In this document: in pieces, positions 9,083 through 28,010 of the stretch
Position numbering within the stretch: position 1 is the stretch's first letter
Layout: every line of letters starts with the position of its first letter
NCBI GenBank assembly: GCA_964588495.1
Contig: CAZPPS010000002.1
Location: 1,108 to 65,107 of the forward strand
Source of the DNA: an uncultured bacterium
GTDB taxonomy: Bacteria > Chlamydiota > Chlamydiia > Chlamydiales > JAAKFR01
Direction of reading: 5' to 3'
DNA length: 64,000 bases
Notes under the pieces: generated by a model
What the model saw: the letters and a program-made list of their open reading frames with translations, nothing else
The model's database searches: none
What the model was told of the DNA's origin: nothing
Translations under genes and position numbers: made by a program

Positions 9083-10240
9083 ATGTACCTCCATCGTAAA
9101 CTAGAACAGCCTCTTAAAGAGGCATTGAATCAATTTCCTGTTGTCCTTGTGACGGGAGCTCGGCAAGCGGGCAAATCAACTTTACTGCAGCACTCTTTGA
9201 AAGGGTATCACTATGTCACCTTCGATGACATTTTAGTCCGGCAATTGGCAGCTTCAGATCCTGCGCTTTTCCTCAAAACATATAAGACCCCGTTGATCAT
9301 TGACGAGATTCAATATGTCCCCTCCATTCTCCCTTACATCAAGATGAGAGTTGATGCAGATCGCCACAACTACGGACAATACGTGCTGACAGGTTCCCAG
9401 GTTTTTCCTCTCATGAAAGGAGTTTCAGAGTCTTTGGCAGGAAGGATTGCGATCTTTCAGCTCTACCCGTTGGACTGGGAGGAAATTCGGGACAAGGATC
9501 TCTATGATGAAATAAAAGTTGCTGAGCAGATGTTAAAGGGATTTTATCCCGAATTCCAGGTTCAACCTCAGCTCAATCCCAAATTTTGGCATAGCGCGTA
9601 TCTCTCAACTTATCTTGAACGGGATCTTCGGGCGATGCGAAATATTCAGGATTTGGGACAATTTCAACGCTTTCTTGTGTTATTGGCTGCCCGCGCAGGT
9701 CAACTTCTTAATTTGAATGAGATAGGAAAGGAATGTGGGATTTCTCAAACCACGGCAAAAGACTGGTTGGTGCTTCTTCAGGCGACATCGATTGTCTATG
9801 TACTTGAACCTTATGCGAGAAACTTGACAAAGCGGGTTATTAAGACCGCCAAACTCTTTTTTGTCGATACAGGTCTTCTCTGCTATCTCTTACGTATCGA
9901 AAATGCTGAGCAGTTGATCTTTTCCCCCTTTTCAGGACATGTATTTGAGAATATGGTTGTTATGGAAAGGATCAAACGTTTTGCGGGAAAAGGGGAGAGG
10001 GCGCCCTGCTATTTTTACCGCACAAGTGCTGGTCTTGAAATTGATCTCTTGCTCGATTATGGAGACCATTTTGATGCTTTTGAGATCAAATTTTCAGCGA
10101 CGCCCAATCAAGAAATGACCCGCTCCCTGGCTCAGTTTAAAAATGAATTTCCCGTGAAAAAAGCAGCGCTTCTCAACCTCAGAAAAGAGATGCTACCATT
10201 TTCGAATGGAGTCGTAGCTGAACACTGGAGCTCATTTTAA
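9083..10240 (+). CDS. AAA+ family ATPase with C-terminal DUF4143-like domain
   Basis: Walker A VTGARQAGKST and Walker B LIIDEIQ. The overall layout and ~385 aa length are typical of the 'ATP-binding protein, AAA + DUF4143' family. Confidence 0.7.
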   Translation: MYLHRKLEQPLKEALNQFPVVLVTGARQAGKSTLLQHSLKGYHYVTFDDILVRQLAASDPALFLKTYKTPLIIDEIQYVPSILPYIKMRVDADRHNYGQYVLTGSQVFPLMKGVSESLAGRIAIFQLYPLDWEEIRDKDLYDEIKVAEQMLKGFYPEFQVQPQLNPKFWHSAYLSTYLERDLRAMRNIQDLGQFQRFLVLLAARAGQLLNLNEIGKECGISQTTAKDWLVLLQATSIVYVLEPYARNLTKRVIKTAKLFFVDTGLLCYLLRIENAEQLIFSPFSGHVFENMVVMERIKRFAGKGERAPCYFYRTSAGLEIDLLLDYGDHFDAFEIKFSATPNQEMTRSLAQFKNEFPVKKAALLNLRKEMLPFSNGVVAEHWSSF

Positions 10241-11157: not shown

Positions 11158-11187
11158 CACGGGCACGGGCAAGGGCACGGGCAGGGG
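11158..11187. repeat. Solo arm of the CACGGG-hexamer repeat family
   Basis: cacgggcacgggcaagggcacgggcagggg lies directly after the psd stop. No convincing partner arm was found. Confidence 0.6.
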
Positions 11188-11246: not shown

Positions 11247-12281
11247 ATGTATTTGACAGACTTTGAGATTCAAAGCCCTCCGTTTGTCTATCCGCAGCAG
11301 GAAGGGTTGGAATTGATGAAGGAGCTCCATAATCTCATGGGGCAGGATGTTTCTGAAAGAATGGATCGGGTCTGTTGCAAGCCGGACAAAATTGGGAAGC
11401 GGCAGACGGTTATTACCAATGAATGGCTGAAGATTGGACGGGGATTTGGGGAGAGGGGGCGCTTTTATCAGACTTTTGTCGATGAAGTGTTCCAGAAGTT
11501 TTATCCGGAAGGTTTAAAAGCTCCAGAAGAGATTATCCATGTGACGTGTACAGGCTACCATTCGCCCAGTAGCGCGCAGAAAATTGTTTTGGAGCGGGGT
11601 TGGCAGGAGGAGACTTTTGTGACACATGCCTACCACATGGGATGTATGGCAGCCCTTCCTGCACTCCGAATCGCCCTTGGAAGTATCAGACGCGCCTTTA
11701 ACCGGGTCGATATTGTCCACACAGAGCTTTGCTCGCTCCATATGAATCCGGCCCTTCATGGTGATGATCAGCTTGTGGCGCAGAGCCTTTTTGCGGATGG
11801 TTTGATCAAATATTCGTGTGTGCATAAGCCCAATAAAGCTGCGCTAAAAGTTTTAACTGTTTACGAGGAGTTGATTCCCGATACCGCTGACAAAATGAAA
11901 TGGGAATGTGAAGATTGGGGTCTTAAAATGACTTTGGCCAAAGAAATCCCGATTTTAATTGGGAGATCCATTCATTCTTTTGTCCAAAAGTTGGAGCAAA
12001 AAAGCGGAGTTGATCTTGAGAAGGCTCACTATGCGATTCATCCAGGAGGGCCCAAGATTATTGAGATGATTGGAAAACAGCTCAATCTGTCCTGCTCACA
12101 ATTAAAAACTTCTGAGAAAATTCTTTACGAACATGGCAATATGTCCTCGGCAACATTGCCCCACATCTGGGATCAGATGCTCCGTGACCCTGAAATTAAA
12201 CCGAATAGTCATATCGTGGGGCTCGCTTTTGGCCCCGGTCTTTGTATGGCAGGCGCTGTCCTGCAAAAGGTGGAAGTATGA
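11247..12281 (+). CDS. Type III polyketide synthase (chalcone/stilbene synthase superfamily)
   Basis: The catalytic triad contexts are visible: HVTCTGYHSPS (Cys), YAIHPGGPKII (His) and HGNMSSATLPHIW (Asn). The C-terminal GLAFGPGL motif is also present. 344 aa. Confidence 0.88.
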   Translation: MYLTDFEIQSPPFVYPQQEGLELMKELHNLMGQDVSERMDRVCCKPDKIGKRQTVITNEWLKIGRGFGERGRFYQTFVDEVFQKFYPEGLKAPEEIIHVTCTGYHSPSSAQKIVLERGWQEETFVTHAYHMGCMAALPALRIALGSIRRAFNRVDIVHTELCSLHMNPALHGDDQLVAQSLFADGLIKYSCVHKPNKAALKVLTVYEELIPDTADKMKWECEDWGLKMTLAKEIPILIGRSIHSFVQKLEQKSGVDLEKAHYAIHPGGPKIIEMIGKQLNLSCSQLKTSEKILYEHGNMSSATLPHIWDQMLRDPEIKPNSHIVGLAFGPGLCMAGAVLQKVEV

Positions 12282-12724
12282 AATGGATCTATCTCACTTT
12301 AATCCCTTTTCTTGTACAAGCAGTTGTCATTGGATATGATGAGTTTCACTTTCATATCAAGAGGGGACTGCCCCGCTGGGAAAGAATTGGCCATCCTTTA
12401 GACACTTTCAGCGTTGTTTTGTCTTTGGCCTTTGTTCTGATTTTTCCTTACACCAAATCGTGGCTAATTCACTATATTATCCTTGCCACCGTTTCGTGTT
12501 TGCTCGTCACAAAAGATGAATTTGTCCACAAAGAGCACTGCGATGCCAAAGAGCAATGGCTCCATGCCCTTTTGTTTCTCAACCACCCTCTTGTCTTGAT
12601 CAGTTTGGGTCTTTTGTGGGCAGATGGGGGATTTAAATCCTTTTTGATTGTGCAGCTGGGCTTTGCAGCGTGCTTTTGTCTCTATCAACTCATTTACTGG
12701 AACCTCATATGGAAAGAAAAGTAA
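12278..12724 (+). CDS. Small 4-TM membrane protein with paired DEFHxH / DEFVHKEH motifs
   Basis: The MKWIYLTLIPFLV start at ATG 12278 forms an ATGA overlap with the PKS stop. Motifs are YDEFHFHIKRG, KDEFVHKEHC and WLHALLFLNHP. No family was recognised. Confidence 0.6.
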   Translation: MKWIYLTLIPFLVQAVVIGYDEFHFHIKRGLPRWERIGHPLDTFSVVLSLAFVLIFPYTKSWLIHYIILATVSCLLVTKDEFVHKEHCDAKEQWLHALLFLNHPLVLISLGLLWADGGFKSFLIVQLGFAACFCLYQLIYWNLIWKEK

Positions 12725-13473
12725 TCAACAACGCCTTCTACGATGATTTGGGAAGCAAATGGTACGAAGCTGACGATCATCCTATCGCATTATTACGTGC
12801 CGAGAATAGGGCCAGAGCCCCTTGGGTTGCAGACAAAATCAAACAACATTTCAAAGAAAAGAAATGCAACGTCCTTGACATGGGCTGTGGGGCTGGTTTT
12901 TTGAGTAATACTCTTGCTCAAAAGGGGTTTCAGGTCACAGGAATTGATCTTTCTGAGGGAAGTTTGTCGGTTGCTCGGGAAAATGACACAACAGGGACAG
13001 TTTGCTATCAACATGCCGATGCCAATGCGCTTCCTTTTAAAGCGGCCCAATTCGATATCGCCTGCGCGATGGATGTTCTAGAACATGTCGAATCGCCACT
13101 CCAGCTGATCACAGAAGCTGCGCGTGTCCTTAAAAGCGGCGGAATGTTTTTTTTCCACACGTTTAACCGCAACTGGTTCAGCTATCTTTTTGCCCTTAAA
13201 GGAATGGAATGGTTTGTCCCCAACATGCCGGCCAATATCCATCTCTACCGGCTCTTTATTAAGCCAAGGGAGCTTGCCGATCATTTGAAGAATTGCTCTT
13301 TCCAAATCTCAGAAATCCATGGCCTGATGCCCACCATCGACAAAGCTTTCTTCAAACTTTTGATGAAAAGAGAGATCCCTTCCGATTTTTCCTTTAAAAT
13401 TGTCCCCTCTTTGAAATGTGGCTACATGGGCTACGCAATAAAAAATTCGAAAATGATTTTTGGCGCAAGGTGA
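12709..13473 (+). CDS. Class I SAM-dependent methyltransferase (UbiG-like O-methyltransferase)
   Basis: Motif I VLDMGCGAGFLS, motif post-I GIDLSEG, and a DIACAMDVLEHV segment. ATG 12709 overlaps the preceding CDS by 16 nt. Confidence 0.85.
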   Translation: MERKVINNAFYDDLGSKWYEADDHPIALLRAENRARAPWVADKIKQHFKEKKCNVLDMGCGAGFLSNTLAQKGFQVTGIDLSEGSLSVARENDTTGTVCYQHADANALPFKAAQFDIACAMDVLEHVESPLQLITEAARVLKSGGMFFFHTFNRNWFSYLFALKGMEWFVPNMPANIHLYRLFIKPRELADHLKNCSFQISEIHGLMPTIDKAFFKLLMKREIPSDFSFKIVPSLKCGYMGYAIKNSKMIFGAR

Positions 13474-26331: not shown

Positions 26332-28010
26332 TCAATAGGTTAGGGGCTCAACTTGTGGCCATTGCTCTAGGAGGGAGAGAGCCTCTTGGAGGAGGGGGGC
26401 AGGAACTTTGGGATTGATGCAGAGGGCATTGAGGTTTTCTAGGGCTTCGGTAGATAGGTGGTCGGCAAAGCCTTCGTGGACCATTTTGGCAAGATAAAGA
26501 GTGGCCTGAAACTGATCTTCTGGGTCGGCAATTGGGCTACTACGTACTGCCTGGAGCATGCCGACGATTTCTGCGGCAGAATTTAAGCGGTTGTACAATT
26601 TTTTATATAAAACCAAAGCACGGTAGAGTTTCGCTTTAATAATCAGGTCTTTCGGGAAGATGCGGCAGCTGGGATGGCTGTCTAAGGTTTGATCCTCCTC
26701 CAGATCGATCACATCCCAAAGATGCAACAGAATGGTTTCTTCTCCGAGGAATTGGTGGTAGTAGGAAATGATGGCCAGGTAGAGTCTGGCAATGTGTTTT
26801 AAAACATTCGGACCGCCATTGAAACTAAAGTTCATCAATTGCAAGTGGATCTGATAAGGGTCGCCCTGGTTGTGATAGGCAACGAGTGTTGAAAAAGGGG
26901 AGCAAAGATATGGGCAGGCAACGGGGTCGAACATTGCGGAAAGTTAAGCCTTTCAGATAGGGTTTGGGCATCTATTTTTTCGAAGCCGCTTTTGAGATAG
27001 AGCATTATTTGATAAAAAGTGGCTTCGATTTGTTCCTGTTGATAGCGAGCATCCAAACGGACTTTTTCCAAAAGGGCAATCGCTAGGTCATCGCTAATCG
27101 CATCTGTGAGTCTAAACGCTCTACAGTAACCGATAAAAACGATCGCCTTTGCAAGCCTTTCAGGGGCGATGACTGGATCATCAAGGGCTTCAAGGAATAT
27201 CTGGAAGATCCTTTGGAATCTTTTTTCGGAGAGAGTATCTTTTAATGTGGCGAAGCGATCGATGAGGATTTCGACAATACGGGATTTGTGGTGTTTCTCG
27301 AATGCCTTGTCATTATAGGCGCCTTCAAAAAATGCCGTATTCAAGCTTTTTTCCTTTAATTCGAGATGAAAATAATGGGCTGCGACGAGTGCTCTCTTTC
27401 GACTTTCCTCTGAAATGCCTATAAGCTTAGCATACTGTGACGATTGCCAATCTTGATCAGTTCTATAATTTACAGCATGACGTGTACGGGTCATGATGGA
27501 ATAGACAAAATCGGTCACGTCTTTTTTGTAGTTAAAATAAGTTTTAAAGTTAATATGGCCAGTCGCTTGTGCTTGAACGACAAATTTCTCGCGGACGCTT
27601 AAATCCCCTTTGCGCAAAATCAGATCTAATTGCTGCTCATTTGAAAGCGTTATGCCTTCAAGCACTCTGATAATTTCTACCGCCCTTTTATTCGCTTTAT
27701 GGGCACAATAATGGAGGCAAAGAACCGATAGACAATTGACATCCCTGTCCGCTTCTCCCTTCAAAAGGGCTTCTTTATAAGAAAGAGCGTCGGTTTTCAG
27801 GATGCCCGCCTTTTCAAAAAGGACTCTATAGAAATCCCGATACCCTGTCAGGTGTTGGAAGGTTTTACAAGTGATCGCGAGCTTCTCACACTCATTGTAG
27901 CTCAAATAACGCATCACAAGTGGGGCAAGATCAGACATCCAAACGCAAGCGTTCACAAAAGTTGTCTCAGGGACTTGAACCGGAAAAGCAGAGAGGTGAT
28001 TGCAGATCAT
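26332..28010 (-). pseudogene. F-box-like paralogue family member, split into two overlapping ORFs (26835..28010 N-part, 26332..26934 C-part)
   Basis: The N-part carries the F-box-like segment (LVMRYLSYNECEKLAITCKTFQHL). The C-part carries family C-terminal motifs (ARLYLAIISYY, KAKLYRALVLY). The two frames differ and overlap by 100 nt. Confidence 0.55.

Follow-up and report, generated by a model that had tools for sequence, protein, structure and literature searches.

A type III polyketide synthase, an undescribed membrane protein, and a UbiG-family methyltransferase in a conserved chlamydial gene cassette with a predicted phenolic-lipid product

The three-gene cassette and its recurrence

The window analyzed in this study is a stretch of 64,000 nucleotides (nt) from an uncultured member of the Chlamydiales (lineage JAAKFR01; contig CAZPPS010000002.1 of assembly GCA_964588495.1), and this report concerns a cassette of three overlapping forward-strand genes at positions 11247–13473. 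The first gene (11247–12281, +) encodes a type III polyketide synthase (PKS) of 344 amino acids (aa) that is ArsB/ArsC-like and is predicted to be a long-chain 5-alkylresorcinol synthase. The second (12278–12724, +) encodes a membrane protein of 148 aa, counted from its ATG, with five helices and from an undescribed family, here called MEM. The third (12709–13473, +) encodes a 254-aa protein, also counted from an ATG, which is an S-adenosylmethionine (SAM)-dependent O-methyltransferase of the UbiG/Coq3 family, here called MT. The coordinates of the open reading frames (ORFs) and a direct reading of the junctions bore out both overlaps of the three-gene cassette reported in the initial annotation. 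At the PKS/MEM junction (12267–12281, +), a Shine-Dalgarno-like AAGGTGGAAG within the 3′ end of the PKS gene was followed by a stop/start overlap, the ATGA at 12278–12281 being common to the PKS stop and the MEM start. At the MEM/MT junction (12709–12724, +), the overlap was 16 nt long and the start ATG of MT lay inside the 3′ end of MEM. A GTG at 12670 is a possible alternative start that would give MT a longer protein, but it had no support from relatives. The base composition of the cassette was unremarkable.

The conservation of this arrangement was examined in one genome per species of the Genome Taxonomy Database, among which 359 genomes held a MEM relative; the best 80 loci, from metagenome-assembled genomes (MAGs) of Chlamydiota with a few mislabeled, were analyzed. 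The PKS gene was directly upstream of MEM in 79 of these 80 loci, the exception being cut by a contig end, and MT was directly downstream of MEM in all 80. Spacing was tight at both junctions, with a median gap of −1 nt between PKS and MEM (20 nt or less in 95% of gaps) and of −25 nt between MEM and MT (20 nt or less in 99%). The window’s own flanking genes (psd, VOC, and tk) were essentially never present at the 80 loci. The arrangement is beyond chance, since 79 of 80 other genomes share the three genes, their order, and their overlapping junctions, and the co-conservation on which the initial annotation relied was observed both in these contiguous chlamydial loci and on non-chlamydial contigs.

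Outside the Chlamydiota, the PKS-MEM-MT triad was found in Labilithrix luteola, in a Polyangiaceae MAG, and on other non-chlamydial contigs, so that the small membrane protein co-occurred with type III PKS genes in other phyla as well. MEM adjoined a type III PKS in 88 of 88 contexts besides the window. In 86 of them it came immediately after the PKS gene; of the other two, one locus was truncated by its contig (L012) and one was rearranged (L080). The most divergent member (L085 / L086, 6856–8531) retained an overlapping PKS-MEM pair with no adjacent MT; the gene following that pair encodes a Mg-chelatase/YifB-like ATPase. In-frame fusions of MEM and MT occurred at two of the 80 loci (L002, 5902–7344; L051, 1502–2884), and proteins of approximately 400–420 aa with MEM at the N-terminus and MT at the C-terminus were present in at least nine representative clusters (P0142, P0155, P0180, P0188, P0208, P0229, P0247, P0248, and P0183). 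Three publicly named fusions are called plain “UbiG” (JGI, NCBI), a label that takes in neither the membrane domain at the N-terminus nor the PKS next door. One further protein (P0279, 431 aa, on a 1959-nt JGI contig) clustered at 90% identity with a 186-aa MEM and had a sub-threshold Chal_sti_synt_N match; it could have arisen by read-through from PKS into MEM or as an artefact of a frameshift.

The cassette of the cultured L. luteola (L081, CP012333, 5179–9941) stood beside genes for a divergent UbiA-family prenyltransferase and a second methyltransferase, and a 189-aa ORF of unknown function overlapped the start of its PKS gene. These surroundings are reminiscent of the clusters for prenylated alkyl-methoxyhydroquinones such as agq of Actinoplanes.

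The synthase, the methyltransferase, and the membrane protein

The PKS matched the C-terminal chalcone synthase domain of Pfam (Chal_sti_synt_C, PF02797) at 83.2 bits against a cut-off of 27, whereas the N-terminal domain (Chal_sti_synt_N, PF00195) was matched over residues 96–185 only and at 22.6 bits, under its cut-off of 27; of the two domains named in the initial annotation, the former was therefore confirmed and the latter fell short. The best matches in the PDB were 3VS9 (E 5e-60) and 3VS8 (E 3e-58), followed by Dictyostelium Steely1 (E 8e-31) and plant enzymes of the chalcone synthase type (approximately 1e-22). Entry 3VS8 is ArsC of Azotobacter vinelandii and 3VS9 is its G284W mutant (PMC6274091). 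Identity to ArsC was 39% over 289 aa, and the PKS core aligned to ArsC over residues 69–342, with the first 70 or so residues unaligned. The Cys/His/Asn triad expected of a chalcone-synthase-type enzyme was intact, as Cys133, His265, and Asn298 in the motifs GCMAA, HPGGPKI, and GNMSS, and Trp219 aligned with the Trp of 3VS9 (ArsC G284W) and with Gly284 of 3VS8. These four residues were invariant in all 76 cassette PKSs compared, including the myxobacterial ones, so the catalytic residues were kept on proper alignment.

In ArsB, Trp281 forces aldol cyclization and leads to alkylresorcinols, while a Gly at that position leads to pyrones (PMC6274091, PMC9927152). Because the PKS has the ArsB-type Trp, its predicted product is an alkylresorcinol and not an alkylpyrone, a prediction that is well supported; the initial annotation had left the choice between the two, and only the first was retained. 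The starter and chain length would, from the enzyme family, be those of a long-chain acyl group, and type III PKSs of the ArsB/ArsC-like clade accept acyl-coenzyme A (acyl-CoA) or acyl carrier protein (ACP)-bound acyl groups directly (PMC6274091).

The methyltransferase passed the cut-off of the NCBIfam UbiG equivalog (TIGR01983, 154.8 bits; cut-off 102.95) and matched Methyltransf_11/23 of Pfam, as a class I SAM methyltransferase with SAM motif I present as LDMGCGAG at residues 56–63. Its closest solved relative was UbiG of Escherichia coli (4KDC, E 2e-26), aligned over residues 10–207, while the shorter UbiG chains 4KDR and 5DPM aligned with MT only to residue 159. Since the 4KDC alignment reaches residue 207 and theirs stops at 159, MT keeps the segment missing from 4KDR and 5DPM, which we take to be the membrane-binding region of UbiG. 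UbiG-family enzymes methylate catechol-type hydroxyls on lipid-tailed rings at the membrane. As judged from these matches, MT is a true UbiG/Coq3-family methyltransferase, in line with the UbiG-like O-methyltransferase of the initial annotation, and the analysis shows, at the level of sequence, that proteins annotated “UbiG” in these chlamydial genomes belong to the PKS-MEM-MT pathway.

MEM contains the three motifs read in it earlier, YDEFHFH (residues 20–26), KDEFVHKEH (79–87), and HALLFLNHP (96–104). Its description as a protein with four transmembrane segments had to be corrected, as the AlphaFold2 model (predicted local distance difference test, pLDDT, 91.4; predicted template modeling score, pTM, 0.85) placed helices at residues 3–29, 33–55, 60–87, 90–116, and 120–144, and the hydropathy profile agreed on five. 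Apart from this helix count, the sequence-level claims of the initial annotation held and its overall interpretation was supported, the part that it gave to the envelope or to a resistant stage being speculative. The family comprised 1086 homologues at E ≤ 1e-3 in a 90%-identity database, falling into 306 clusters at 50% identity. Residue conservation was determined in 150 divergent representatives, clustered at 50% identity, in which D21, E22, H26, R29, E35, H39, D42, S73, K79, D80, E81, H84, E92, H96, and H103 were 98–100% conserved. All of the conserved residues lay at the ends of helices 1, 3, and 5 and at the starts of helices 2 and 4, on a face that is rich in Lys and Arg and bears the C-terminus. 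Because of this charge, and because the C-terminus is joined to the cytoplasmic MT in the fusions, the conserved face is most likely cytoplasmic in the modeled protein.

Helices 1 to 4 of MEM each carried one Glu/His pair on one helical face (E22-x3-H26, E35-x3-H39, E81-x2-H84, and E92-x3-H96). This arrangement suggests a putative metal site in an interfacial four-helix bundle, the clustering of the pairs being drawn from helix boundaries only, and makes MEM a candidate metal-dependent tailoring enzyme. The mean pairwise distance was 0.44 for MEM, 0.50 for PKS, and 0.44 for MT, so that MEM was at least as constrained as both enzymes, and this level of constraint, together with the near-invariant polar and charged residues, points to MEM being an enzyme rather than a spacer. 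No Pfam or NCBIfam match was found for MEM. Membership of the ICMT/PEMT family of membrane methylases was rejected, as no Pfam match was obtained for 20 MEM members at E ≤ 5 and no Foldseek match in the PDB. An internal duplication of helices 1–2 and 3–4 was likewise unsupported, as hhalign paired only GHP with NHP (E 0.06). By its sequence, MEM represents an undescribed and strongly constrained membrane protein family, and the novelty of the cassette rests there.

Proposed pathway and competing explanations

The interpretation we favor, which we hold with belief and doubt in about equal measure, is that the cassette is a self-contained, translationally coupled operon that would produce an alkylresorcinol, oxidize its ring through MEM, and O-methylate it to yield a membrane-resident phenolic lipid. 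In the initial and well-supported step, the PKS would use a long-chain acyl starter and three malonyl units to form a 5-alkylresorcinol by aldol condensation. The amphiphilic alkylresorcinol would then partition into the cytoplasmic leaflet, where MEM could act on the phenolic head group, most likely as a metal-dependent, O2-using hydroxylase or oxidase that gives an alkyl-benzenetriol (hydroxyquinol). Its candidate ligands at the cytoplasmic interface would be E22/H26, E35/H39, E81/H84, and E92/H96, plus H103. Finally MT, for which the family is shown and the substrate predicted, would O-methylate the new catechol-type hydroxyl, and the end product would be a methoxy-alkyl-hydroquinone or -benzoquinone, a lipid resembling the polyketide quinones. 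As to its physiological role, one can speculate that this membrane lipid would be redox-active or antioxidant, or would carry electrons by an alternative route, and that it may be linked to the extracellular stage, in which the cells do not replicate. The order PKS, MEM, MT is the most economical model because UbiG-family enzymes act on catechol-type hydroxyls and a resorcinol gains one only by ring hydroxylation.

The assignment of ring oxidation to MEM draws on comparison. The characterized three-gene systems consist of a PKS, a methyltransferase, and a flavin oxidoreductase (PMC10896814, PMC9927152), and ring oxidation by MEM is suggested because every characterized three-gene relative has its flavin oxidoreductase where MEM stands. 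By this analogy, MEM would hold the slot of the soluble flavin oxidoreductase of srsABC, pkqABC, and hidABC. A flavin oxidoreductase or hydroxylase was not in the cassette, did not recur at the 80 chlamydial flanks, and was unlisted in the seven other contexts; clustering of all flank ORFs at the 80 loci gave no recurring fatty acyl-AMP ligase (FAAL), acyl-activating enzyme, ACP, or flavin hydroxylase.

Several observations weighed against oxidation by MEM and against the pathway built on it. The cassette encodes no electron donor. A plain resorcinol can be O-methylated without first being hydroxylated, as by HidA in the hierridin pathway (PMC10896814), and the presence of MT alone therefore does not require an oxygenase. 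No known oxygenase was recognized in MEM: a Pfam search by hmmscan at E ≤ 5, run with MEM and 19 relatives, found no family, the MEM profile had zero matches among PDB sequences at E ≤ 10, and Foldseek searches of the PDB with the MEM model gave no match (best E 1.3). A di-iron fatty-acid hydroxylase or desaturase was tried and rejected, with no match to FA_hydroxylase or FA_desaturase of Pfam, and the five invariant His fit none of the His-box patterns HX3-4H, HX2-3HH, and HX2-3HH. The canonical ExxH spacing was present in only one of the four Glu/His pairs (E81-x2-H84), the other three being ExxxH. The correlation of the pairwise distances of PKS, MEM, and MT (r 0.68–0.74, Mantel p 0.001) speaks for the operon, yet a mirror-tree signal of this kind would also arise from plain vertical inheritance. 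As to transcription, the runs that contain the sequence were all DNA metagenomes, from activated sludge and biofilm, and included no RNA run.

Four other explanations were considered. MEM could be a non-catalytic membrane partner that docks PKS and/or MT, or that receives or presents the alkylresorcinol, in which case the product would be an O-methylated alkylresorcinol serving as a structural or envelope lipid, as in Azotobacter cysts or the BpsAB products. We regard this as unlikely, while giving it serious weight: the MEM-MT fusions fit tethering, MEM is similar to no known enzyme, no electron-donor gene lies within the cassette, and methylated, unhydroxylated alkylresorcinols are known pathway products (PMC10896814). 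However, 14 near-invariant Asp, Glu, His, Lys, and Arg residues on one face are atypical for an anchor, and MEM is conserved as strongly as the enzymes. MT retains the segment absent from 4KDR and 5DPM, UbiG’s own membrane-binding region, and the PKS-MEM pair persists without any MT in the divergent L085/L086 loci. An improbable alternative would place MEM before the PKS, as a metal-dependent membrane hydrolase or acyltransferase that supplies the starter from acyl-ACP or phospholipid, or that releases or transfers the product. The invariant core is indeed PKS-MEM rather than MEM-MT, a starter supply of the FAAL/ACP or ArsA-like kind is missing from the cassette, and clusters of His, Asp, and Glu at the interface also occur in membrane hydrolases. 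Yet this clade of type III PKSs needs no intermediary to use acyl-CoA or acyl-ACP (PMC6274091), and the planctomycetal relatives make C15/C17 resorcinols heterologously without a helper (PMC10896814), while MEM is fused to MT and not to PKS and is placed between the two.

More improbable again is that MEM is an exporter or flippase taking the phenolic lipid to the outer leaflet or the outer membrane. A small multi-helix membrane protein beside a lipid-synthesis gene would suit such a role, and the weakest of the Pfam matches was to a chlorhexidine efflux repeat (E 0.26, not significant). However, the conserved polar residues are all at one, cytoplasmic, face instead of along a transmembrane path, fusion to a cytoplasmic methyltransferase would be unexpected for a transporter, and no similarity to any transporter fold was found. 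The least credible explanation, and in our judgment a very improbable one, is that the UbiG-like gene is an ordinary ubiquinone-biosynthesis gene whose adjacency to a PKS is coincidental. MT does pass the equivalog cut-off, and its fused relatives were named UbiG by JGI and NCBI. Against this, MT overlaps MEM by 16 nt, comes after it at each of the 80 chlamydial loci as well as in other phyla, and forms a single protein with it in several lineages, and a menaquinone gene of the MqnA/D family lies in the window, which agrees with the initial annotation that a ubiquinone role is unlikely. No ubi gene was present among the window ORFs scanned, which were about half of the large ORFs.

A further-reaching form of the favored pathway is possible, and we entertain it tentatively, with distinctly more doubt than belief. 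MEM would be the first member of a novel class of metallo-oxygenases, small integral membrane proteins whose substrates are lipid-tailed phenols hydroxylated at the cytoplasmic face of the membrane, and would replace, without being orthologous to them, the flavin hydroxylases of the srs, pkq, and hid pathways. Menaquinone would then be accompanied by a non-isoprenoid “polyketide quinone” in hundreds of environmental Chlamydiota and in some Myxococcota, and this quinone might serve the redox homeostasis of the non-replicating extracellular stage. If MEM were an oxygenase, it would constitute a new enzyme class, one that could find use in the modification of phenolic lipids and would bear on any pathway in which the hydroxylase of a quinone ring has yet to be found. 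That a lipid of the polyketide quinone type is made by chlamydiae, as it is by dormant or hypoxic actinobacteria, is an idea open to direct test. Environmental chlamydiae live as obligate intracellular bacteria, and their genomes are reduced. Because such genomes keep the cassette under strong constraint in hundreds of species, a core physiological role is implied rather than optional secondary metabolism. The MEM family itself combines a lack of annotation, a conserved putative metal site, and a strict link to PKS.

Genomic setting and comparison with known systems

Upstream of the cassette lies psd, encoding phosphatidylserine decarboxylase (PF02666 match), as the initial annotation had stated. 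The “repeat arm” that it also placed before the cassette is probably a short, imperfect run of hexamers (CACGGG, CACGGG, CAAGGG, CACGGG, CAGGGG) at approximately 11158–11186, directly after the psd stop and within the 90-nt gap preceding the PKS gene. Downstream are a gene of the VOC/glyoxalase family and one for thymidine kinase. Scans for promoters and terminators around the cassette returned fewer sites than the shuffled expectation and were uninformative. A gene for an AAA_14/DUF4143 ATPase (9083–10240, +) lies between an outer-membrane-factor-like ORF and psd.

Among the 80 chlamydial loci, other recurring neighbors were a Tpx-like peroxiredoxin, a TauE/TSUP-like permease, and malic enzyme, all identified by eye from ORF translations; they were present at approximately half of the loci or fewer and reflect clade synteny only. 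The Tpx-like thiol peroxidase gene was downstream on the same strand at 44 of the 80 loci and sometimes adjacent (e.g., L075, 7846–8358). It was absent from the window, and the association was not replicated at the non-chlamydial loci. A peroxiredoxin link outside the Chlamydiota was considered and rejected, since the neighbor at one such locus (L083) was thioredoxin-like, with the sequence WCGPC, and BLAST did not match it to the Tpx-like family.

Of the futalosine-pathway menaquinone genes that the initial annotation had reported in the window, one was confirmed, a gene of the MqnA/MqnD family at 51461–52255 (−) (PF02621, 188 bits). The nucleosidase-like gene beside it (the pair spans 50836–52255, −) matched futalosine hydrolase only below threshold and is possibly a divergent MqnB. 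Genes of the SctT and SctR/FliP families, which belong to the export apparatus of type III secretion, and a sub-threshold CT847-family-like ORF were located at 49444–50031 (−), 53472–54221 (−), and 55777–56412 (−). The CT847 family consists of chlamydial effectors, and the type III secretion genes of the window are consistent with a chlamydial origin. Four large ORFs of the window (35305–37946, 26835–28010, 54591–55439, and 60094–60912) had no Pfam match.

Surveys with antiSMASH have reported type III PKS clusters as conserved in several environmental chlamydial families, with content and product unanalyzed (PMC9666466, PMC13229535), and our literature search for the triad, a UbiG-type partner, or a membrane partner found only such generic antiSMASH mentions. 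The existence of type III PKS clusters in chlamydiae is thus already known, while the literature searched contained no description of the triad, of the logic of its product, or of the MEM family.

The initial annotation had likened the cassette to srsABC, ars, and bpsAB. The shared logic of a PKS with a methyltransferase was upheld; the flavin hydroxylase, the type I fatty acid synthase (FAS), and the ICMT-type methylase of those systems were not found in it. ArsB and ArsC of A. vinelandii include the closest solved relative of the PKS and share with it the Cys/His/Asn triad and the residue of the ArsB Trp281 type. The ars operon differs in having the type I FAS partners ArsA and ArsD, in pairing a resorcinol with a pyrone PKS where the cassette has a single PKS, and in lacking both MEM and a UbiG-like MT; ArsC is also longer (410 aa vs. 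344 aa). In Bacillus subtilis bpsAB, the gene for a type III PKS likewise directly precedes one for a small multi-pass membrane protein with a tailoring function. BpsB is a membrane methyltransferase of the ICMT/PEMT family, whereas MEM had no match to the ICMT/PEMT Pfam families or fold, and in the cassette a separate, soluble protein is the SAM methyltransferase.

MT resembles E. coli UbiG and Coq3 in scoring above the equivalog cut-off and in its alignment over residues 10–207, and differs from them in its PKS context and in its predicted substrate, which would carry a polyketide-derived alkyl tail instead of a polyprenyl one. In ubiquinone synthesis, hydroxylation by Coq7 is followed by methylation by Coq3/UbiG. 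MEM shares with AOX/PTOX, Coq7, and hemerythrin-like di-metal oxidases the Glu/His pairs three to four residues apart, borne on four consecutive helices at an interface. The ferritin-like di-iron carboxylate oxidases (AOX, Coq7) bear two Glu and two ExxH on a four-helix bundle. Unlike the di-metal oxidases, to which it had no sequence or fold match, MEM has transmembrane helices and ExxxH spacing in three of its four pairs. The resemblance of MEM to the di-metal four-helix-bundle oxidases is, on this comparison, one of logic.

The closest parallels in overall design are three-gene operons of other phyla. Like the cassette, pkqABC of Mycobacterium smegmatis and Streptomyces sp. MNU77 and srsABC of Streptomyces griseus combine a Trp281-type resorcinol PKS with a methyltransferase and a third tailoring gene. 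Their product is a lipid-tailed methoxy-benzoquinone; the bacteria that make it use menaquinone, and dormancy or hypoxia induces it, and the pkqABC polyketide quinones take the place of menaquinone in hypoxic biofilms and spores (PMC9927152). In those operons, however, the third gene encodes a soluble oxidoreductase or hydroxylase to which MEM has no detectable homology, the gene order is PKS-MT-oxidoreductase rather than PKS-MEM-MT, and it is the MT of the cassette that is specifically of the UbiG family. Planctomycetota and Chlamydiota belong to the same PVC superphylum. A conserved alkylresorcinol operon is also the common feature with hidABC, for the picocyanobacterial hierridins, and with the MT-oxidoreductase-PKS operon of Planctomycetota, which differ from the cassette in that the PKS gene comes last, an FAD-dependent oxidoreductase is in the place of MEM, and no membrane protein was reported. 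Expressed heterologously and without a helper, the planctomycetal PKSs yielded C15/C17 alkylresorcinols (PMC10896814). Set beside these systems, the cassette is a novel variation on the established phenolic-lipid operons of the PKS/methyltransferase/oxidase kind.

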